NCBI RefSeq assembly: GCF_964194155.1
Contig: NC_135892.1
Span: 4,402,001-4,466,000 of the forward strand
Reading direction: 5' to 3'
Source: Cetorhinus maximus
Lineage: Eukaryota
DNA: 64,000 bases
The position numbers and the translations under genes are program-made. The notes under the pieces are model-generated. The model searched no databases. It saw only the letters and a program-made list of their open reading frames with translations, and was not told where the DNA came from. This document shows positions 3,201-60,448 of this stretch, one piece after another (the stretch's first letter is position 1; each line of letters begins with the position of its first letter).

Positions 3201-6200
3201 AAAAAAAAATGAGTTCGTGGAACTTAAAATCAATTAATAAATCTGGAATATAAAACTAGTCTCAGCAATGGTGACCATGACAACCATCGCTGATTGTTGC
3301 AAAAGCCCATCTAGTTCACTAATGTCCTTTTGGGAAGAAAATCTGCTGTCTTTACCTGGTCTGGCCTACACGTGACTCCAGACCCACAGCAATGTAGTTG
3401 ACTCTTAACTGCCCCTGAAATGGCCTAGTAATTCCTGGCAGCAATGCCCATATCCCATGGAAGAATAAGAAAAAGTCATCCATACCTGACCTTTTAACCC
3501 TTGTCCTTTAAGTGCCTCAATGTCATCTCTGCTGAGTTTCTGGGACTTGCCATCATCAATTATGTTTCGGTTATCAACACCAGCTTCATTTGTTTCTGGG
3601 AGAATAAAAGTGCACACTGCTTTCACAACAAACAAAACCCACAAGACTCTTTACTTTGTTTAGACTTGGGCCAAATTTAGCCACAACTACTAGGTTTGAA
3701 AGTCTCTTCAAACTGTAAGCATTCCATATGAAATGATTGGCTTGTCTCAACAGTCTTCAATGGGGGAAGAGCCACGACACTCAACCTTCCAGAATTAATT
3801 TAGTACCCAGTCATCATCGCTTTTCAGAGAGAGTTAAGATTCATAGTTAAAGCAGAAATATTGTCCTTCCTCTAACGATGCTCAGTGCCTATACAAAGTG
3901 ACAAGTACACACACAAATATTGTGTTTCCCGACAGGCAAAAAAAACCCATTAAATTTAAACACTGAAGCTTGTACTATTTTCTTAGACATTATTATTTTT
4001 TTTAAAAGCTGTTCAAACTCAGTAGCTATACCTTTAGCAATTAAAAATCTGTAAGTCAAACTACTAAGAGAATTTGGAAACCATCCCTTTATTCCTCCCA
4101 CACCCCACAAAGAATAAATATAAATTACAATTAGTTTCAAGAGCAAATTTTCTTTTACTCCTTGACTAATTTTGGTACATAGTATAGAAATATACACTTT
4201 TTCTTTCCTTTGCAGTTCAGCAAACGGAAGTAGAGAACAATGGTAAAATGTAATGTAGAAAGTTAATTCACTAACTGCGATTGAGATTTCAAGTCAGAAA
4301 TAATTCACTCAATTCTGGGGGTTTACATGCAAAAGGTTTTTAAGTTATATCGAATGAAATGCTGTCTGAATCACTTGGTTATATTCTACCCATGGGGTAC
4401 CGGATGCGTATGAATGACTAAATATAGTCAATGAGGAAAACACTGCCCAAAGAGCCCAAACTGTAATAATCACTGTGCAATATACAGCACAAATAAAAGT
4501 TATTAAATATTACCCCTTAAAAAATTATACAAACTTTACATTTGTCAACTTTGGCAAGCAAGAGTTATCACATCAAACATGCTTTTGAATGTATACAGAC
4601 TGTCTGGTGGAATGACTAACTATAGAATTTGGTCGCTTTATTGGTTAGTAACATTGACATTAAGCTGTCCGTCATGCAATTTGCAGGTTCAGACAGAAAT
4701 ACATGAAGTTCTGACGCTACCTTTGGCAACTTCCTCAATTTTTGCTTTAAGTGGTTGGAGAACTCCTCCATTGGAAACCTCAAAAGTGGTGCCATACTGC
4801 TGTCCAATCACATTGTCCAAGTAAAACCACTGTTTCTCAAAGATGATTTTTCTGGAAAGCAAAGATTGAGATCCATTAAGTTCTAACCAGAAAATTAAAT
4901 ATCATCCGAAGTCATAGACACAATCACTGACTTTTAAAAAAATCATTCATGGGATGTCGGTGTCACTGGCTATGCCTGTGCCCATCCCTAACTGCCCTTG
5001 AGGTGGTGGTGAGCTGCCTTTTTAAACTACAACAGTCCATGTGGTGTAGGTATACCCACAGTGCTGTTAGGGAGGGAGCTCCAGGATTTTGACCTAGCTA
5101 CAGTGAAGGAATGGTGATATATTTCCAAGTCAGGATGGTGTGACACAAAAACAGAAAATGCTGGAAAAACTCAGCAGGTCTAACAGCATCTGTGGAGAGA
5201 AAAACAGAGTTAATGTTTCAATTCCATATGACTCCTCTTCAGAGTGAAAGAGAAGTAAAAATGTGTATAAATTTATACTGTTAAAGGGGGTGGAGCAGGT
5301 GAAGCTGGATAGAAGGCCAGTGCTAGGTGGGGCAAAGGAGATATGGACAAAGATGTCATGAACAAAAGGACAAAGGGGGTGTTAATGGTAGTGGTAAGGG
5401 CTAAAGGAGGTGCTGATAGTGGCATTAAGATAAGAAAGCAGAATGTGATAATAGCTAGACAAGGGTAAGTAGTCTGGAAAGAACAACATGAACAAGTAAC
5501 AGATGGCCCTAGTGGAGATGGGGTGGGGTGGGGAGGGGGGACGGTGGTGGGAAAAAAGATTGAAAATAGTGTAAAAGATGAGGATGAAAATAGTGTAAAA
5601 GGTGAGGATAAAACAATGAATAAATGGAAATAAAAATAAAAGTGTATAAAAAATAAAAATATTGAAAAAAGGGGTGAGGATAGAGGAGAGTTTTCATGGT
5701 CTGAAGTTGTTGAACTTGATGTTCAGTCCAGAAGGCTGTAAAGTGCCTAATCAGAAGATAAGGTGCTATTCCTCCAGTTTGCGATGGGCATCACTGGAAC
5801 ATTGCAGCAGGCCAAAGATGGACATGAGGGCATGACAGCAGGATAGTGTGTTGAAATAGCAAGCAACAGGGAGGTCTGGGTCATGCTTGCAGACAGACCG
5901 AAGGTGTTCCGCAAAGTGGTCACCCAGTCTGCATTTGGTCTCTCCAATGTAGAGGAGACTGCATTGGGGACAGGGAATGCAATAGACCAAATTGAAGGAG
6001 GTGCAAGTGAAGCGCTGTTTCACCTGAAAGGAGTGCTTGGGCCCTTGGATGGTGAAGAGGTAAAGGGACAGTGTTGCACCTTCTGCAATTGCATGGGAAG
6101 GTGCCGTGGGAGGCGTTGGGGGTAATGGAGGAGTGGTCCAGGGTGTCCCAGAGAGAACGGTGCCTTTGCAATGCTGACAGGTGGGGGTGAGGGGAAGATG

Positions 6201-9200: not shown

Positions 9201-11159
9201 GTGAGCAAAATAATGAACAATAACATCACATTATGAACGCGCCTTAGAATTTTAAGACAAACCCAATTTAGATGTTCCACTAATTCTTCTATGTTTACTA
9301 AAAAAAACTGCCACTACTAATACAACTTTAACACAAATGGGCCAAATATTATTTGCAAAATAAGGGCACGGAGCAAGAAGACGAAGTCCCAGGTGTATGA
9401 GTTTTCACAAAGCTACCGAGCATTTTTAAAAAAAAAGCACAAGTGACTTGCACAGCACAGCACCAAAACTTTCCCAGGTTTCAACTTATGAAGTACTATT
9501 AGCAGCCGAGCTAAAAGTTCCACAGGTTTAATGCGGACACATGAGAGCTGCAGACCTTTGAAAATGCTGCTGGTTCAAACAAAAAAAGGCAGTGGATAAA
9601 GTTACAAAAATCATTTAAAAAAAAGCAAGAATATTAATTCTGAGCGGAGTGGAGGGGACTTTGACGCCAATATTGAATGATATCTTTGCTTTTGAAGTAA
9701 ATCTCGTCCAGCTGCATCATTTAAGACTTTGGGTCATAAACGCAATGTGGCAGTGGCTCCATAAATGCTGGACCCCCACCAACCCCACACACAACCCCCC
9801 ACCCCACACACAACCCCCCCACCCCCCCCACACACACCCCCACCCCCCCCACACACACACTCCCACCCTCCCCCCCACACACACTCCCACACACCCACCC
9901 CCCCACCCCACCCACACCCCCCCCACCCACACACACCCCCCCACCCCACCCACACACACACCCCCCCCACCCACACACACACACCCCCCACCCACACACA
10001 CACACCCCCCCACCCACCCACACCTCCCCCCCCCACCCACACACACACACCTCCCCCCCCCACCCACACACACACCTCCCCCCCCACCCACACACACACA
10101 CCTCCCCCCCCCACCCACACACACACCTCCCCCCCCCACCCACACCTCCCCCCCCACCCACACGCACACCTCCCCCCCCACCCACACACCTCCCCCCCCA
10201 CCCACACACCACCCCCCCCCACCCACACACACACACACCACCCCCCCCCCACCCACACACACACACACCACCCCCCCCCACCCACACACACCTCCCCCCA
10301 CCCACACACACACCTCCCCCCCCCACCCACACACACACACCTCCCCCCCCCCACCCACACACACACACCTCCCCCCCCCCACCCACCCACACACACCTCC
10401 CCCCCCCCACCCACACACACACCTCCCCCCCCCACCCACCCACACACACCTCCCCCCCCCACCCACACACCTCCTCCCCCCCCCACCCACCCACACACAC
10501 ACACCTCCCCCCCCCACCCACACACACCTCCCCCCCCCACCCACCCACACCTCCCCCCCCCACCCACCCACACACACACACCTCCCCCCCCCACCCACCC
10601 ACACACACACACCTCCCCCCCCCCACCCACACACACACCTCCCCCCCCCACCCACACACACACCCCCCCCCCACCCACCCACACACCTCCCCCCCCCACC
10701 CACCCACACCTCCCCCCCCCCACCCACACACACACACCTCCCCCCCCACCCACACACACACCTCCCCCCCCCCCACCCACACACACACCTCCCCCCCCCA
10801 CCCACACACACACCTCCCCCCCCCACCCACACACACACCTCCCCCCCCCACCCACACACACACACACACCTCCCCCCCCCACCCACACACACACCTCCCC
10901 CCCCACCCACACACACACACCCCCCCCCACCCACACACACACACACACCCCCCCCCACCCACACACACACACCTCCCCCCCCCACCCACACACACACACA
11001 CACACCCCCCTTGCTGGGGCAGTATCACTGCTGCAGTTACCTTCCCCTGTGCACCTGAACGGCTTTAAACACCTCCTCCCTCTTCAGGACCACATGGTCC
11101 CCCTCGCCGACAGTGTGGGCCCCGCTGCCGGCAGCCAGCACCTCCCCGGGCCCGGACAT
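144..11159 (-). CDS. TRMT6: tRNA (adenine-58-N1)-methyltransferase non-catalytic subunit TRM6, 5' part of gene (coding exons 1-4; continues beyond window start)
   Basis: Spliced exons 11159-11041, 4851-4721, 3595-3486, 235-144 join in frame with GT-AG introns: MSGPGEVLAAGSGAHTVGEGDHVVLKREEVFKAVQVHRGR-KIIFEKQWFYLDNVIGQQYGTTFEV..-ETNEAGVDNRNIIDDGKSQKLSRDDIEALKGQGLKGQ-DIVQHLIENSTTFRDKTGFAQEKYIKKKKK. Matches the Gcd10/TRM6 N-terminus; head-to-head with MCM8 as in other vertebrates. Confidence 0.96.
357..435 (+). mobile_element. tRNA-derived SINE, 5' part (remainder at 3209-3476)
   Basis: A-box-like TGGTGTAGCGG and B-box-like GGTTCAAATC; body resumes after the LINE poly(A) at 3209. Confidence 0.6.
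436..610 (+). mobile_element. tRNA-derived SINE head joined to a LINE body
   Basis: GGCGTAGTGG A-box and GGTTCGAATCC B-box; resembles the head at 357 and the SINE body at 3220-3310. Confidence 0.65.
611..3208 (+). mobile_element. Degenerate non-LTR retrotransposon (CR1/L2-group LINE): endonuclease remnant, reverse transcriptase and 3' tail
   Basis: ORF 1745-2437 has QFGFRQGHS, ALDIKAAFD, GVPQGS and FADD motifs; endonuclease remnants upstream; ends CCCATGAATGAATGAAAAAAAAA; frameshifts and stops. Confidence 0.92.
3209..3476 (+). mobile_element. 3' part of the interrupted SINE, with LINE-like tail
   Basis: Body CCCATCTAGTTCACTAATGTCC...GACTCCAGACCCACAGCAATG; tail GCCCATATCCCATGGAAGAATAAGAAAAAG resembles the LINE 3' end. 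Confidence 0.65.
3486..3595 (-). CDS. TRMT6: TRMT6 coding exon 3
   Basis: cag|..TNEAGVDNRNIIDDGKSQKLSRDDIEALKGQGLKGQ|gtatg; 110 bp. Confidence 0.95.
4721..4851 (-). CDS. TRMT6: TRMT6 coding exon 2
   Basis: cag|A KIIFEKQWFYLDNVIGQQYGTTFEVSNGGVLQPLKAKIEEVAK G|gtag; 131 bp. Confidence 0.95.
4933..5145 (-). mobile_element. 3' end of a CR1/L2-group LINE (same family as 611-3208), split by the Penelope insertion
   Basis: Reverse complement of 2990-3200; continues at about 7262. Confidence 0.8.
5146..7258 (-). mobile_element. Penelope-like retroelement (RT + GIY-YIG endonuclease), 5'-truncated and degenerate
   Basis: TARFYLLPKIHK, QIKGVAMGT, FLDL, TNIHYKPTDS and GIY-YIG NLVYCIPCPQCSLLYIGETKCRLGDHFAEH across frameshifted ORFs; 3' UTR with hammerhead-like motif near 5208-5245. 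Confidence 0.92.
7262..8215 (-). mobile_element. CR1/L2-group LINE RT fragment (upstream continuation of 4933-5145)
   Basis: VTALDIKAAFD.VWHQG and SVMEYSPLAWMS motifs in ORFs 7968-8288 and 7425-7658. Confidence 0.88.
9772..11010. repeat. C/A-rich minisatellite (unit about CCTCCCCCCCCACCCACACACACA) in TRMT6 intron 1
   Basis: About 1.2 kb with almost no G on the + strand; source of the spurious P/H/T and G/V/C ORFs. Confidence 0.97.
11041..11159 (-). CDS. TRMT6: TRMT6 coding exon 1
   Basis: gcggcgATG at 11159; MSGPGEVLAAGSGAHTVGEGDHVVLKREEVFKAVQVHRG AG|gtaac; 119 bp, phase matches exon 2. Confidence 0.93.
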
Positions 11160-11800
11160 CGCCGCCGCCGCCGCGCTCCTCTTCCCCTCCCCCTTCTTGG
11201 CCTGGCGCCTTCAATCCATCCCCCACCTCTCTGGACCGAAACCAGCGTAAACACACGGGAAGGCTGGTCGAGGTTGACTCGGGCGATGTTCAGTGGCGCG
11301 GCCGCCGGAAAACTCGCGTCCTTCAACAGCCAGCAGAGCGCGCGGACACGCTACCCGCGGCCGCTCTGCAGCCAGCACGCGGCCCCGGAAACGGAAAGAG
11401 AAGCGGCCAGTACCGCGCGCGCATGCGCGTCAATGCGGTTCCACACCCCCCCCTCCCGCCGGTCCGCCCACTCCATACGGTACGCATGCGCGTCAACCGG
11501 GATCCACACCTCAATGCATGCGCTACAATCAGGCCCCGCTCGGGCGGGCATGAGCCCATCAGGCCCCACCCACGTGTTGCGCGTCACCCAAGCTCCGCCC
11601 AGACGCGCGTAATCAGCTCCCGCCCATTCCAACCGTCTTCCTCTCTGCCACTGTACGCATGCGCCTCGCTCATGCTCCAGCCTAGCTGGCGGGTGCGAGA
11701 AGTTGGTTTGAGCCATCCGTGTGGCTTCAGTCTGTCCAACCGGTGACCGGCTCAAACGCAGCGCCCGGAAGTAGTGGAAAGGAGTGGCGGGGTTGAGGAA
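11160..11800. promoter_or_regulatory. CpG-island bidirectional promoter of TRMT6/MCM8
   Basis: High CpG density between divergent genes; NRF1-type GCGCATGCGC at 11419-11428 with near copies at about 11483, 11515 and 11655; ETS CCGGAAGT at 11765-11772; E2F-like TGGCGGG/TCCCGCC. Confidence 0.85.
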
Positions 11801-11855
11801 TTTGAGAGAGAAGAAACCAGCCTGTTGCAGATAGTCAGGATAAGACCCCGTATCT

Positions 11856-12385
11856 CCCCCCCCCCACCCAGTGCAGTGTCACTGTTTCCAGCCTCCCCTC
11901 CCCCACCCAGTGCAGGGTCACTGTTTCCAGCCTCCCCTCCCCCACCCAGTGCAGTGTCACTGTTTCCAGCCTCCCCTCCCCCACCCAGTGCAGGGTCACT
12001 GTTTCCAGCCTCCCCTCCCCCACCCAGTGCAGGGTCACTGTTTCCAGCCTCCCCTCCCCCACCCAGTGCAGGGTCACTGTTTCCAGCCTCCCCTCCCCCA
12101 CCCAGTGCAGTGTCACTGTTTCCAGCCTCCCCTCCCCCACCCAGTGCAGTGTCACTGTTTCCAGCCTCCCCTCCCCCACCTAGTGCAGTGTCACTGTTTC
12201 CAGCCTCCCCTCCCCCACCCAGTGCAGTGTCACTGTTTCCAGCCTCCCCTCCCCCACCCAGTGCAGGCACTGTTTCCAGCCTCCCCTCCCCCCCCCAGTG
12301 CAGTGTCACTGTTTCCAGCCTCCCCTCCCCCACCCAGTGCAGTGTCACTGTTCGTGCCTCCCCTCCCCAATTCAGTGCAGTGACA
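11856..12385. repeat. 39-bp minisatellite, about 13 copies (CAGTGCAGTGTCACTGTTTCCAGCCTCCCCTCCCCCACC)
   Basis: Near-identical tandem units, giving 13-aa periodic ORFs in several frames. Confidence 0.97.
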
Positions 12386-12490
12386 TCTATGCCAGCCTCC
12401 TGTCCCCCATCCAGCGTAGTGTCATTAGCAACAGCCTCACCTTCCCCTCCTCCCACCCCATCTCCACTTTGGCCAAGACAATAACCTGCA

Positions 12491-46203
<33,713 letters not shown>

Positions 46204-51219: not shown

Positions 51220-51870
51220 AAAGTGTGTGGCCTGCGCCTTTAAGCAGGTGTCGTTCGGGCCTCTTTCTAACCCCCGCCCCCCGCCCTCGAGCCCTGACCT
51301 CGCCGGGGAAATGATGGCTTCTCAGGGCAGCTGCCGACTGAGGCGGGCCCAGGGCAGCAGCAGCAGCGGCGGCCGGGGCTGCTCGCACTGAGCGTCAGGC
51401 CTCGGGGCCGCCCATCCCCACTCCCCGGGCCATGTTCCTGTGGAAAAGCCGCTGGGCGATCGGGCGGGCGGTGAGCCGACCGGTTAAAATGGAGCCGGGG
51501 CCCCGGGCCGGGTGGCCGCCGCCGCCGCCCTGCTGGGCCCACACGCGGCTGCTGAGCTCCGGCGGGGGCCCTCCCCACCCCGGGGCCTGGACCGGGGCCG
51601 GGAGGAGGCGCCTGGGCCCCGGACCCGGCCCCGGCCCCGCCTGGTGGTCCTCCCCTCACGCCCGAGCCCGGCGGCGGGAGGCCGCCCCAGGCCGCGGGCC
51701 CGCCTGCAGCAGCCGCGCCTGCGGAGCCGGCAAAGCGGCCGCCAAGAAGGCAGCCCCGGAGCCCTACCCGTACCGGAGGGTCGGAGACAAGGAGCAGGCG
51801 GAGGAGAGGGAGAGGGCGGCGGCCGCGGCGGCCGGGTCTCCGGAGCTGGTAAGGAGGGAGCGCGGCCCCT
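51220..51870 (+). promoter_or_regulatory. CpG island / promoter and first exon of CRLS1
   Basis: Very GC- and CpG-rich; GC boxes CCCCGCCCC at about 51272-51287. Confidence 0.8.
51432..51848 (+). CDS. CRLS1: CRLS1 coding exon 1 (mitochondrial-targeting-like N-terminus)
   Basis: gcc[22 protein letters not shown]... Arg/Ala-rich ...GSPEL|gtaagg; 139 codons. Confidence 0.85.
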
Positions 51871-54800
51871 CAGTGACCCTCACACTCACTCAGTCTCCCT
51901 CACTCCCTCACACTCACTCTCCCTCACTCTCACACTCACTCTCCCTCACTCTCCCTCACACTCACTCACACTCACTCTCCCTCACACTCCCTCACACTCC
52001 CTCATTCTCCCTCATGACATTGACTGACTTTGTAACTCAGGTCGTCCAATATTCATTCAAACTCGGGCACTAACTCTTTGCTCTTGTTCCTCTCACTCCA
52101 TCACCCTCTCACTCCATCACCCTCTCACTCCATCACCCTCTCACTCCATCACCCTCTCACTCCATCACCCTCTCACTCCATCACCCTCTCACTCCATCAC
52201 CCTCTCACTCAAACACCCTCTCACTCCATCACCCTCTCACTCCATCACCCTCTCACTCAAACACCCTCTCACTCCATCACCCTCTCACTCCATCACCCTC
52301 TCACTCCATCATGTTCACTCCATCACCCTCTCACTCCATCACCCTCTCACTCTATCACCCTCTCACTCCATCACCCTCTCACTCCATCATGTTCACTCCA
52401 TCACCCTCTCACTCCATCATGTTCACTCCATCACCCTCTCACTCCATCATGTTCACTCCATCACCCTCTCACTCCATCACCCTCTCACTCCATCACCCTC
52501 TCACTCCATCACCCTCTCACTCCATCACCCTCTCACTCCATCATGTTCACTCCATCACCCTCTCACTCCATCATGTTCACTCCATCACCCTCTCACTCCA
52601 TCACCCTCTCACTCCATCATGTTCACTCCATCACCCTCTCACTCCATGTTCACTCCATCACCCTCTCACTCCATCATGTTCACTCCATCACCCTCTCACT
52701 CCATCATGTTCACTCCATCACCCTCTCACTCCATCACCCTCTCACTCCATCACCCTCTCACTCCATCACCCTCTCACTCCATCACCCTCTCACTCCATCA
52801 CCCTCTCACTCCATCACCCTCTCACTCCATCACCCTCTCACTCCATCATGTTCACTCCATCACCCTCTCACTCCATCATGTTCACTCCATCACCCTCTCA
52901 CTCCATCATGTTCACTCCATCACCCTCTCACTCCATCATGTTCACTCCATCACCCTCTCACTCCATCATGTTCACTCCATCATGTTCACTCCATCACCCT
53001 CTCACTCCATCACCCTCTCACTGCATCACCCTCTCACTCCATCATGTTCGCTCAATCGCCCTCTCACTCCATCATGTTCGCTCAATCGCCCTCTCACTCC
53101 ATCATGTTCGCTCAATCGCCCTCTCACTCCATCATGTTCGCTCAATCGCCCTCTCACTCCATCATGTTCGCTCAATCGCCCTCTCACTCAATCATGTTCG
53201 CTCAATCGCCCTCTCACTCCATCATGTTCGCTCAATCGCCCTCTCACTCCATGTTCACTCAGGCTCACCCTTTCACTCAATCACTCTCTCACTGAGGTAC
53301 ACCCACTCAGTCAATCACTCTCACTCAGGCACACACTCTCACTCAGGCACACCCTCTCACTCAGGCACACCCTCTCACTCAGTCAATCACTCTCTCTCAG
53401 GCACACCCTCTCACTCAATCACTCTCTCTCATGCCCTATCACTCACACTCAACCACTCTCACACATATATACATAATCACTCACTCAGGCACACCCTCTC
53501 ATTTCACTCAATCGTGTTCAATCAGGCATAGCCTCTCATTCATACACATTCAATCACTTACTAAATCACTCTCCCTCACACACACTCAGTCACACAATTA
53601 TATTCAATCAGGCACAGCCTCTCATACACACTCAATCACTCACACTCAGTCACTCGCTCAATTATTCGCACTCATTAAACACTGAGTTACACACACTCAT
53701 ACATAGTCACTCCCACACATTCTATCGTACTCTCTCACACCCTCTTGCGCTCACACACTCCGTCACGTTTGCACATGCTCCCTCCCCTTCTCACTCTCAT
53801 ACACACACCCTTAACCTTACATACTACCCGTCTTACTCAGACTCACGTACACCCACTTGCATTCACACATGCCCTCTCACTCTCTCATACTCAATCACAT
53901 ACTCGCACACCCAATGATACCGCATCTCTCGCGTGCGTGCGCACACACTCTTTCGCCTCATCACTCCCTCCTGTTCACTCTCTCTTGGTTGCCCCGTTAC
54001 TCTTAGTCATTGACTCACTTCCACATATTCCTTGGGATTGGATTTTTCTCCAGCGCTTTATCCTAGAGTCACTTAGAGATACACGTACTGCAGTTGTGGA
54101 CTTTGCTGCTGCAACATTACTGCCTCATTTTTGGCATGGGCTGCACCAGAGCTGATGTTTTCAAAACATTGTGGTTCATATTATTAGTGATTAGGCTTGG
54201 GGCCAGTGGTTAGGGTTAGGAACGTCTCATAAATTTATCCTATTATTAAATGTGAGCAGTCATTTTATGATGACCTTTGAAATTTATTAGTGATTTTTAG
54301 GGTATGGCAGAATGTGCTCTGATGTTTCTGGAAGAGCTGAAGACGTGGTTAGTCAATCTTCCATGGATAATCTCAGATTTTGTTATAGATACGGCTGTGT
54401 GCTGTATGATAAATCTTCTCTAGCTGGCTCTTCACACCTCTTTAGTGGAGGTGCAATTGTCAATTTACACCTGAAATTGCTGGAGCGGTGTTTTGGGCTG
54501 TGCATGCAGTTTGTTGTGCTTTTCAGCTCCCTGTTCATATTGATTTCTGTTGGTACCATGGAAATCATCATTCATGAGGTCAGTGACATATCAGAGACCT
54601 TGTGGGCAATGTGCCTGGTTGCATACCCTGCAACTACTAGCACTGTTTAATGGTGAGAACAGTGCTATAAGTCAAATTGAGGAGTTGCAGTAAATGAACT
54701 TCTTCTGAAACCAAACCAGATCAACTAAATAAACTTCTTAAAAATGCTGGAAAAATTAACCTCTTGTGTCTGCTTGTCCCTGTTGTCAGTGCTTCCCCGT

Positions 54801-56246
54801 TGCTTTGAGTTTTACATGTCATAGACAGTTCACATACTACATGTGTGATAACCTGACTGTTGATGAAAGTGGCAGGTTCCTCACGTGGAGCCTTCAGCAG
54901 CATGTGGGTCCCACCAACGATCTGCTGCACACTGGGGAAGCCAGCAATCCAGTGGAAGTTGGTACGCTGGCTATTTAATGCAGTTGGCTACACTGTGGAA
55001 GGTTCTAGGCTGCAGATCCTCACAGCTCCCTGATAAATGTCACAGAGGCCTTCGGCCACGGGTGCCTCAAGCGACACATCAATTCCAAGTTGTAATTGGC
55101 AGCATAATAAGTAGTAATTAGGAACGGGGGACTTCTCAGTGGATTTCTTATTACAATTCTTTTGCCTTCTTTACATGTAAAAATAGATTGGGGGTGGGGG
55201 GGGTGCCCTGAGATGCTAATAGTGCTCTGGGTGACAAAAACTGGCAAGAATAAACTTTCAAATTTGAGAAATTTAGGAAAAAGTACTTTTGGAACAATTT
55301 CCTGACTGCTGACATCAGGCTCCAAAGTTTTAAATGTTCCTTTATTGGCCTATCAGGCTGAGAGTCATGTGTTGGCCATTGGCTGCATCAATACCTAGGT
55401 GCTCCATGACTTTGTTTTTCAGTTGCACTGGCTGTGGCAGAGGTAGCAGCATAAATCCCACAAATTGGAGATTGGTACTAACTGCAATGGGAAAACCAAG
55501 TGCTGATACTAGAATTTTATCAGCTTTGGCGAGGCTGACAATGACAGATTTAGATGAGAAAAGATGGGAGGAGGCTCGAGTGGAGCATAAATGCTGGCGT
55601 AGATTGGTTGGGTTGAACGACCTGTTTCTGTGCGGTATAACCTATCCCAGTAGCGGATGATGAAAACTGATGACATTATCTCAGTTACTCCGCTTTGTAA
55701 ATGATTTAACAACAGTGCACACCAGCATTGATCAGCAATGTCCCAGGAATTTCAAACCCACATTTATGTGTCGCTCATACCTTGGATGCAAAGTTCTTCC
55801 GCCTGACTGACGTATTTCATATTCATGACGGAGGAGCAAAGCAGAACTCAAACTCTGAGCAATGAGGCAAATCTACCATTAGAAAAAACAAAAACAGAAT
55901 TACCTGGAAAAACTCAGCAGGTCTGGCAGCATCGGCGGAGAAGAAAAGAGTTGACGTTTCGAGTCCTCATGACCCTTCAGCAGAACTGAGTATAGTTAGG
56001 AGAGGGGTGAAATATAAGCTGGTTTAAGGTTGGGGGGGAGGGGGAGGGGGGTGGTTGTAGGGACAAGCAAGCAGTGATAGGAGCAGATAATCAAAAGATG
56101 TCACAGACAAAAGGAACAAAGGGGTGTTGAAGGTGGTGATATTATCTAAGATACCTTCAACACCCCTTTGTTCCTTTTGTCTGTGACATCTTTTGATTAT
56201 CTGCTCCTATCACTGCTTGCTTGTCCCCACAACCACACCCACCCCC

Positions 56247-56288
<42 letters not shown>

Positions 56289-57995
56289 CCCCCCCCCCCC
56301 CCCACCTTAAACCAGCTTATATTTCACCCCTCTCCTAACTATACTCAGTTCTGCTGAAGGGTCATGAGGACTCGAAATGTCAACTCTTTTCTTCTCCGCC
56401 GATGCTGCCAGACCTGCTGAGTTTTTCCAGGTAATTCTGTTTTTGTTCTGGATTTCCAGCATCCGCAGTAGTTTTTCGTTTTTAAATCTACCATTAGATT
56501 GGGTTCAGAACCAATCAAACATGTGGTAGGGAACCAAAGTCACATGTAAGACTGTCTGAGAGGCAGGTTCCCTTCACTGACTGACACTAGTGAATCAATT
56601 GGGTTTTTAACAACATAAGGTATACCATAAATATATTCATTACTTTTCATGGGCGGATTTGCTTGGCCAAAGTACCATAACCGCTTGGTTATTATGATCT
56701 TGGTTGACATTTAAAGCCTAGTGTAATATCTGGTGTTTGTTGCTTTTGAAGTCGAGGAAGATTGTTTGGAGAGACATAATGGAACCATTGACTGAAGCAT
56801 TTCAAATTCATCTTCAGGTTAGGTTTGAATTCATTTGGAAAAACAAGCTAAAGATTTTCCATTGAGAAAATAAGTACATTTTTTACAGAAATAGCAATCC
56901 TTTTGGGTTTCTGAGTTTGAACGTTAGAAGCAACAGGCTGTGTTAATTACCCATTTGTTTGTCAAGTTCTCTGGCTATCTCTGAAGTAAAATTAAACTGT
57001 TCATAAAATAATATCCTATAACAGCAACTTGCATTTATGCAGTGTCTTTACCTTGGAAAAAAACTTCAAAGGAGCATAACTGGGGGAAAAAGCCTGCCAC
57101 AGAAGAAGGTAGTAGGATATTAAGATAGGTGACGAGAAGCTAGGCCAAAGAGATTTTAAGGAGGGGCTTAATCGAGGAAAGAGGCAGAAGTTTAAGGAGG
57201 ACATTTCAGGGCTTAAAGCCTAGACAAGCTAATGGCACAGCCACTAATGGTGGGGGTGAAAGGATTGGGGCTGCACAAGAGACCCGAGTTAGAGGAAGGC
57301 AGAATTCTTGGAGGATTGTAGGGCCAGAGGTTAGATATAGGAAAGGGTGAGACTGTGGAGGGATTTGAACATATACAACTTAGTTTGGAAATCAGAAATC
57401 GTAATAAAATAAGAGGAAGCAGAAACTCATTACTTGCAGGAAATTTGTGCAGATGACACAGACTCACGCTCGTTTATTTCTTCATTAAAGTTATATAAAT
57501 GTAAGTTCATGCAGCCTCTCCCTGTAGCTGACAGTGATGCCCCTGGGGCAAATACGAACTTCAAGCCTTGTCTTTTGAGACAAGCTGAGGGCTTCAAGTG
57601 AAGCTCTTGATGAAGATGTTCAAAAGGTACAAAAGACAATTTTATAGGGAGGTTTAACTATGTTACTGCAAAATGTGAAATAGTTAAACGATTTTGTTAT
57701 ATCACAAACCTTTTTTTGTGAGGACTTAGTGGGAAAGATGTGACAGATATCTGCCCCTGCGCACTCTCTTCTACCCCTAGAAAAAAAATGAGGTTTTCTT
57801 ACTGGTGATCAGGAATATGTTTATATGAAATAATTAATTTCCTATCTTTCTTTATAGTATGAAAATCCATGGACGATTCCAAACTTACTATGTATGGCAA
57901 GGATTGGCTTGTCACCATATTTGGGCTACCTGATTGTGGAAGAGGAATTCAATTTAGCTCTGGGTCTTTTTACTTTGGCAGGAATTACTGATCTG
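51432..57995 (+). CDS. CRLS1: Cardiolipin synthase (CMP-forming), 5' part of gene (exons 1-2; continues beyond window end)
   Basis: Exons 51432-51848 and 57858-57995 join in phase 0; [11 protein letters not shown]...LAGITDL marks the start of the CDP-alcohol phosphatidyltransferase domain; lies downstream of MCM8 as in other vertebrates. Confidence 0.93.
51870..53990. repeat. Compound C/T/A-rich minisatellite in CRLS1 intron 1 (16-mer CACTCCATCACCCTCT, 14-mer CACTCCATCATGTT, 30-mer higher-order unit, degenerate flanks)
   Basis: Tandem units visible at 52090-53260; source of the S/H/P/T ORFs. Confidence 0.96.
55949..55987 (-). ncRNA. Minimal type-I hammerhead ribozyme-like motif (variant core)
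   Basis: - strand AGUU-CUGCUGA-A-GGGUC(AUGAG)GACUC-GAAA-CG-UC-AACU: helix I AGUU/AACU, helix II, palindromic ACGU helix III and GUC site; core has C where consensus has A6. Confidence 0.65.
56347..56385 (+). ncRNA. Hammerhead ribozyme-like motif, sense copy in CRLS1 intron 1
   Basis: AGTT-CTGCTGA-A-GGGTC-ATGAG-GACTC-GAAA-TG-TC-AACT. Confidence 0.55.
57015..57400 (-). mobile_element. L2-like 3' fragment
   Basis: ACAGCAACTTGCATTTATG end, purine-rich body similar to 17030-17580. Confidence 0.55.
57858..57995 (+). CDS. CRLS1: CRLS1 coding exon 2
   Basis: tag|[46 protein letters not shown]|gtgag; 138 bp. Confidence 0.96.
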
Positions 57996-59984: not shown

Positions 59985-60240
59985 TAAAAGCAGAATACTG
60001 CAGATGCTGGAGATATGAAATAAAAACAGCAAGTGCTGGAAAAACTCCAAAGTTTAGCAGCATCTGTGGAGCGCGAGAGAGACTGAGTTAATGTCTTGAG
60101 TCTAATATGACTCTTCTTCAGAACGTTTTGAAGTTGAAGTTCTGAAGAAGAGTCATGTTAGACTCAAACATTAACTCTCTCTCTCTCACTCTACAGCTGC
60201 TGCCAGACCTGCAGAGTTTTTCCAGCATTTTCAGTTTCTA
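59985..60240. mobile_element. Older Penelope-derived fold-back with decayed CUGAAGA hammerhead motifs in both arms
   Basis: GAGTC-TAATAT-GACTCTTCTTCAGAAC facing GTTCTGAAGAAGAGTC-ATGTTA-GACTC. Confidence 0.85.
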
Positions 60241-60448
60241 TATTAAACAAGCACTATTGCTATAGAAGGATGCTGGATATAACTAAACCAGGCTGTAGCC
60301 ATTTGTCAAATTACCGCCTGACCAGAGTTAATGAACTGTCTTTTAGGAATTGCTAAATGTAAAACATGTCATTGTGTTCATTGGGTTTTTAAAGTATAAA
60401 ATCAGTGCATTTTAACAAAGTGTCTGATTGATCCATTCCATGAATGGA

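Follow-up and report, generated by a model that had tools for sequence, protein, structure and literature searches.

A hammerhead motif with a pyrimidine at core position 6 across a Penelope-like retroelement lineage of Cetorhinus maximus

The window analysed here is a 64,000-nt stretch of the Cetorhinus maximus genome (contig NC_135892.1, positions 4,402,001 to 4,466,000 of the forward strand), and all coordinates below count from its first letter. It holds young and old copies of a retroelement, several of which carry a minimal type-I hammerhead motif (Table 1). Read on the minus strand, the motif at 55949-55987 runs AGUU, the core CUGCUGA, a single A, GGGUC, AUGAG, GACUC, GAAA, CGUC and AACU, which gives a 4-bp helix I, a 5-bp helix II, an ACGU palindrome and a GUC cleavage site. 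In the usual hammerhead numbering, the fourth core base, here a C, is position 6. Every part that an earlier note had named for a type-I hammerhead is indeed in place, but its list left out an extra unpaired A between A9 and G10.1, and the fold itself is assigned by descriptor only.

As the earlier note had also claimed, all four young arms that keep a core read CUGCUGA, and the older relatives at 5208-5245 and 60085-60175 read CUGAAGA. The four arms belong to just two insertions; each insertion holds two arms in inverted orientation and is bounded by direct target duplications. In the insertion at 45356..45594 both arms start 2-3 nt ahead of C3; the 5' strand of helix I is truncated in these arms (45461-45536), with a G at 1.1, and the 45502 arm shares its C15.2>U change with the 56347 arm. 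The copies' ends fall in the tail region behind the hammerhead, and the window's young copies are without an ORF.

Table 1. Hammerhead-bearing copies of the retroelement in the window and their parts
Feature	Position	Strand	Remarks
Minimal type-I hammerhead motif, C6 variant	55949..55987	-	
Helix I of this motif	55987-55984 with 55952-55949	-	
Core of this motif	55983-55977	-	C6 = 55980
Unpaired A of this motif	55976	-	between A9 and G10.1
Helix II of this motif	55975-55971 with 55965-55961	-	
GAAA of this motif	55960-55957	-	
Predicted cut in this motif	between 55953 and 55952	-	
C6 hammerhead motif, opposite arm of the same insertion	56347..56385	+	core 56351-56357, C6 = 56354; C15.2>U
Single insertion: pair of 5'-truncated pseudo-LTR arms in head-to-head orientation	55884..56483		arms ~55884-56134 (-) and ~56153-56483 (+)
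15-bp direct target duplication around it	55869-55883 and 56484-56498		read by eye
TATA-like TATATTT, ~30 nt ahead of helix I	56318..56324	+	mirror 56016-56010 (-); promoter role inferred
Initiator-like TCAGTT over helix I 5' strand	56345..56350	+	mirror 55989-55984 (-); start inferred
Conserved tail / 5' UTR behind hammerhead	56386..56483	+	tail motif 56401-56431, mirror 55933-55903 (-)
Second insertion: inverted pair of C6 arms	45356..45594		cores 45495-45489 (-) and 45502-45508 (+)
12-bp duplication around it	45344-45355 and 45595-45606		read by eye
Young inverted pair, truncated within motif	42892..43105		position 6 missing
Young copy, truncated in loop II	21766..21848	+	position 6 missing
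Old A6 relative (CUGAAGA) and adjoining ORF remnant	5143..5293	-	deepest ORF-tree row
Old inverted pair, A6 (CUGAAGA)	60018..60242		G12 decayed

What kind of element carries these motifs? Long copies run upstream into an ORF with RT and GIY-YIG domains. Using an N-terminal stretch of the ORF from a C6 copy as query, we took 20 long copies out of the best 40 matches. Their 3' motif has C6 in every case, a uniformity that the choice of query favours. In nine of them a second motif lies ~3.3 kb upstream, at the 5' end, as a direct repeat and again always with C6, and inverted arms are present in several. An unbroken 917-aa ORF is found in four of the 20, and three of these four carry C6 in both hammerheads. 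The ORF matches the Pfam families RVT_1 (E 2e-6) and GIY-YIG (E 5e-4), both just under the curated cut-offs, and its neighbours in the Atlas are eukaryotic RVT_1/HTH_animal clusters. Full-length relatives thus have the single ORF with RT and C-terminal GIY-YIG of a Penelope-like element (PLE), and the partial-tandem pseudo-LTRs, inverted 5'-truncated copies and 3' tail are of the same type. The Penelope-like identity proposed earlier is upheld: the host of the hammerhead is an autonomous PLE with tens of thousands of genome copies, which by resemblance may be Poseidon-like.

In this element the ATG lies 178 nt past C3, the stop codon ~390 nt ahead of the 3' motif, and stop codons interrupt the frame before the ATG. 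The motif is thus non-coding and under no coding constraint, and those upstream stops lead us to reject a coding constraint as the reason for the state of position 6. A separate observation concerns the 5' UTR. In the ancestral core with A6 and U7, an AUG at positions 6-8 opens a 9-codon frame that U6 or C6 abolishes; since A7 would also remove it, loss of this AUG can explain the change of A6 only in part, if at all. No second hammerhead was found in any of the five elements scanned with a relaxed descriptor.

Is the motif itself real? A 31-nt pattern of the window subfamily has 16,412 exact matches in the 4.0-Gb genome and none when reversed as a control, so the motif is not due to chance. 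The Rfam scan of the window gave no hammerhead match at E<=5, even for the decayed A6 relatives, and its miRNA matches were rejected, as they correspond to the inverted arms. For the 39-mer, energy minimisation predicts another hairpin (z = 0.15); helix II has a predicted probability of 0.32 in the window type vs 0.99 in the youngest; and with 110 nt of 3' sequence added, helix I is mostly unpredicted for every type, A6 included. The predicted dimer minimum is a double hammerhead in none of eight copies, and since this holds even for A6, folding cannot discriminate between the types. We therefore rejected energy folding as a stand-alone support for the hammerhead fold, which these predictions do not back.

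Position 6 was then read across the genome. Among the 16,412 matches, 5,471 have C6 and only 44 have A6. The remaining 10,897 (by subtraction) have U6 or G6, and among the 100 matches listed only U6 and C6 occur. When the pattern leaves helix II open, exact matches rise to 47,114, of which 6,741 have A6; exact matching under-counts old copies, so that the share of A6 in all copies must be higher. A younger subfamily with helix II GGGCC/GGCUC has 5,645 matches, with C6 in 98 of the 100 listed. The C was thus in the source elements, as had been proposed; post-insertion mutation as its origin is rejected by the counts, and so is a young genome-wide consensus with A6, the outcome that the earlier note had named as speaking against its idea. 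A random 200 kb held seven motif-spanning copies (four U6 and three A6), too few for use. Outside this genome, the U6 form in one contig and the A6 form in a loose-end consensus, from two other organisms, give a weak hint.

Compared with the minimal hammerheads of metazoan PLEs (PMC4209133), the motif has C3 U4 G5, N7 G8 A9 and G12 A13 A14, with A6 as the sole exception: the published consensus is CUGANGA, and here position 6 is C or U. The likeness extends to the type-I topology, the place in the pseudo-LTRs of an RT and GIY-YIG element, the short helix I, the unpaired base between 9 and 10.1, the G10.1-C11.1 pair, the loopless palindromic 15.2-16.2 segment, the NUH site, the tandem pairs ~3.3 kb apart and the inverted pairs. 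The motif is therefore a variant, and not a consensus member, of the PLE minimal hammerhead.

To place the variants in time, we collected 261 records (1.3 Mb) with 340 distinct profile matches, 246 of them spanning the motif; this set mixes core-selected, tail-selected and random loci. Trees were built on the ORF with the motif left out, from 63 copies with >=300 nt of the ORF end, 52 of which (>=450 nt) entered IQ-TREE, and were midpoint-rooted on the old window copy at 5143..5293. The trees are ladders. A6 and early U6 rows are interleaved at the base, followed by a node of U6 rows with GGGUC and C17 (support 100/98), a node whose set holds the first C6 rows (99/97) and a node of 27 rows that all have C6 (98/81). 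The trees do not establish that C6 arose once, nor do they reject it (p-AU 0.19). The order of types read from these trees would be A6, U6, CUGCUGA (the window type) and CUGCCGA (the youngest), likely with U first and C afterwards. U6 is older and commoner than C6, and the window type stands midway in the series, before the youngest CUGCCGA form. Divergence from the group majority, in groups of 5-14 copies each, falls along the same series, from 4.9% for A6 (n=9) through 2.7-3.6% for U6 and 2.0% for CUGCUGA (n=5) to 0.9-1.2% for the CUGCCGA types (0.9% in the youngest, n=14). Together, the ladder and the staged drop in divergence mean that the lineage kept copying through several stages after the loss of A6.

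We then asked how far the other bases of the motif are constrained. We could stage 235 of the 246 motif-spanning copies by variable sites, and 182 of them have U6 or C6, in seven pyrimidine-6 stages. Through these stages the majority base changed at 0/12 core, 0/8 helix I and 0/2 helix III sites and at 3/8 helix II sites, as against 8/12 free sites within the motif, 12/40 upstream sites and 7/61 tail sites. The core differs from the free sites (Fisher p = 7e-4) and from the upstream flank (p = 0.027), less so from all flank (p = 0.10). Measured against fourfold-degenerate ORF sites (8/96 changed), the invariance is not significant, either for the 12 core sites (p about 0.35-0.38) or for 23 sites (p = 0.17). 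The free motif sites and the upstream flank also change far faster than the fourfold ORF sites, an excess that possibly reflects selection on the repeat or uneven sampling. Because the set was partly core-selected, the test was repeated with the core positions as N: 89 of the 100 matches listed are intact, five have a CpG-type G12>A and six have other, scattered changes; CpG decay of G12 is the sole variant seen more than twice among them.

All helix II changes keep pairing, one pair passing from A-U through G.U to G-C (G-C in 10 copies) and the second from U-A through U.G to C-G (the wobble in 5 copies, C-G in 25); in the youngest types helix I is longer by two outer pairs. H17 went from U to C and back to U, and G never became the majority. 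The covariation that the earlier note had called for is therefore present at two helix II pairs, with two-sided changes through wobble intermediates, but it is modest and comes down to ~three lineage-level events. In a 29-row alignment that was core-preselected, the paired percentage was reached by 11 of 500 shuffles and the two-sided pair count by 230 of 500; the alignment does not stand out clearly from its shuffled versions. With about a dozen events read from sequence, the constraint on the motif is suggestive.

We next looked at the 5' starts of the 103 copies that carry the exact tail motif: 53 pass the TATA region, 44 start between -30 and +45 of C3 and six start just outside. Among the 44 truncated 5' ends, 15 (from 12 insertions) lie at -5 to -2 from C3 (binomial p = 4e-9, overstated because arms are treated as independent), and three lie at the cut site, which is the chance expectation. 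The preferred start coincides with the word TYAGTT, which, like the upstream TATATTT, is near-constant across stages; these words resemble the initiator and TATA box consensus. We infer that transcription starts on the first bases of helix I and that the short copies are complete cDNAs of the 5' end of uncut RNA: their 5' ends are at the start of helix I and not at the cut site. A rival explanation of the pile-up is that synthesis ends once the cDNA has folded back on helix I, and such fold-backs do exist, as 8 of 30 inspected cut-site ends are of this kind.

Genome-wide, 54 copy ends fall at the cut site vs 27 two bases before it and 18 two bases after it, counted with three patterns that differ slightly in length and excluded letters. 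Besides the eight fold-backs, seven of the 30 inspected by eye (out of the 54) are ambiguous, with a 2-nt overlap; the controls at neighbouring positions also hold fold-back and ambiguous cases and were left uncleaned. No sharp cleavage signature was thus found in the copy 5' ends (54 vs 27/18, with 15 of the 30 inspected being fold-back or ambiguous). A two- to threefold excess at the cut site may exist, in at most ~1% of the subfamily. Tails from the A6 era do not separate from U6 tails. In Figure S3 of PMC4209133, TCAG- or TCAT-like words can be seen by eye directly ahead of helix I in several motifs as well, and the arrangement with a start site at helix I may be general. In a set of inverted insertions (L261, L265, L269, L274, L280, L287, L288 and L290; about 1430-1530) the junction is an exact helix I complementarity, which suggests that cDNA fold-back priming is one source of PLE inverted repeats.

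What would a pyrimidine do at position 6? A6C is a described natural variant, known from one phage, where it is slow but active and performs poorly in Mg2+ (PMC3088659, PMC7151607). The Bcep176 hammerhead has a kobs of 0.004 per min at 1 mM Mg2+ vs 0.31 in Mn2+, and A6C placed in a fast hammerhead lowers activity by orders of magnitude at 0.3 mM Mg2+ (PMC7151607). CUGCUGA is itself the core tested in the mouse-gut mutant of the same work (PMC7151607, PMC3088659). On a minimal hammerhead, A6C could mean no activity at all.

Between the two options of the earlier note, a functional core variant or a dispensable ribozyme, the data speak rather for something in between: a motif weakened yet still under selection. 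To explain these results we propose a ribozyme that probably still folds and cuts slowly and whose fold is under selection, a reading to which we give about an even chance. The substitution of A6 by a pyrimidine is lineage-wide, non-coding and present in both repeats of intact full-length copies; later changes fell only at positions where hammerheads tolerate them, and the inserted copies carry the uncut motif. In this scenario, source elements would have swapped A6 for U or C, likely U first, and kept copying. Transcription would run from the first bases of helix I, and reverse transcription would begin in the tail 3' of the cut site, by analogy with PMC11167929. With such a start, cut RNA could not give a complete terminal repeat, so that slower cleavage would be cheap or even helpful to copying. 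Residual cleavage, by a dimer paired at the ACGU palindrome or with the help of the element's protein, would hold the other core bases unchanged; the element would still need either some cutting or the fold as such. Against this attenuated ribozyme counts the double role of the helix I 5' strand as putative initiator.

In a first alternative, the motif no longer cuts and persists as a structural or sequence signal at the RNA 5' end, perhaps a protein-binding site or a downstream part of the promoter, its hammerhead look being merely inherited. The copy ends without a cleavage signature and the motif's position at the inferred transcription start would suit such an element. In vitro, insertion was not impaired by catalytic mutations in the Anolis hammerhead (PMC11167929), and Naiad PLEs are successful despite having no canonical hammerheads (PMC8557442). 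Yet the eight single-stranded core bases stayed fixed (0/8) as against N7, H17 and loop II (8/12, p = 0.004), and H17 toggled between allowed bases only, which leaves this alternative possible but doubtful.

At the other extreme, the variant would be fully working, with dimerisation, the ORF protein or Mn2+ compensating so that cleavage equals that of the A6 ancestor. After two changes at position 6, the youngest subfamily has not gone back to A (A6 in one of the 100 matches listed), helices I and II were strengthened later, Mn2+ rescues C6 hammerheads (PMC7151607) and protein-assisted cleavage is described for one PLE hammerhead (PMC11167929). We nevertheless judge a full rescue improbable: in Mg2+ both C6 hammerheads tested cleave slowly (PMC7151607, PMC3088659), the core shows no compensating change, and A6 is found in 56 of 56 metazoan motifs (PMC4209133), under a descriptor that required it. 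Finally, a dispensable ribozyme that drifts, with too little time for other core changes, agrees with the ORF baseline, which predicts about one core change where none was seen, but is highly improbable given that 12 of 43 motif sites changed, that position 6 alone broke the consensus and that recurrent sub-lineage helix variants keep pairing (G.U to G-C in 10 copies, U-A to U.G in 13 and 5).

Returning to the attenuated ribozyme, we envision a bolder version, which is speculative and on balance unlikely. The passage from A6 through U to C would be an adaptive gate that silences spontaneous cleavage so that capped, uncut RNA gets copied, cleavage being switched on by the element's protein, dimerisation or Mn2+. 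If true, a eukaryote would have a pyrimidine-6 hammerhead that is both natural and functional, within the first 39 nt of the transcript, and this hammerhead would belong to a class systematically missed by CUGANGA descriptors.

Several known systems frame these possibilities. The element resembles Poseidon of Anolis carolinensis (PAc) in its architecture. In PAc, cleavage by the hammerhead requires protein, insertion is templated by uncut RNA, and reverse transcription begins at an internal site in a tail 3' of the motif (PMC11167929); the present element would likewise start in its tail. Unlike PAc, whose ORF starts in stem II (PMC11167929), our motif is non-coding, with the ATG well behind it. 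Like the U3-A8 variant of Schistosoma Cercyon, which is the sole core covariation reported in the excerpts of PMC4209133 used here, it is a core variant amplified by a PLE and missed by the standard descriptor; the Cercyon change is a compensatory base-pair swap, whereas position 6 has no compensating partner here. And unlike Bcep176, a single phage ribozyme that shares the C, the variant is fixed in a eukaryotic retroelement lineage, on a minimal motif and with U6 as well.

A6 is present in all 56 representative metazoan motifs in Figure S3 of PMC4209133, a set in which cartilaginous fishes do not feature. A published search descriptor, 'cuganga', fixes A6 (PMC8557442); descriptors of this kind would miss about 40,000 of the 47,114 exact motifs here. 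Some PLEs reported as 'lacking' hammerheads may deserve a new search. The phenomenon is larger than the earlier note saw, an inherited, lineage-wide pyrimidine-6 variant. Our literature search turned up neither a retroelement hammerhead with a pyrimidine at position 6 nor a natural A6U; the collection of Lunse et al. 2017, said to hold about 150,000 PLE variants, might contain one.

Cleavage by a PLE hammerhead was not needed for insertion in vitro (PMC11167929), and PLE hammerheads have been suggested to merely parasitise PLEs (PMC8557442). The lineage described here offers an age-ordered natural series (A6, U6, C6U7, C6C7 and reinforced helices) in one autonomous element with intact copies; thus, the trade-off between cutting and copying becomes testable on natural sequences.

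The window holds another ribozyme-like match. At 24252-24315 (-), the Rfam CPEB3/HDV-like model scores 33.7 bits (gathering 35, E 3.6e-5); the surrounding stretch is rich in repeats and has a relative near 1700-2970, and the match may be a ribozyme that belongs to a different retroelement. Long low-complexity or minisatellite arrays lie at 9730-10430, at 11776-12436 (39-nt unit) and at 51861-53380, with CT-rich 16-nt minisatellite units near 52-53 kb.
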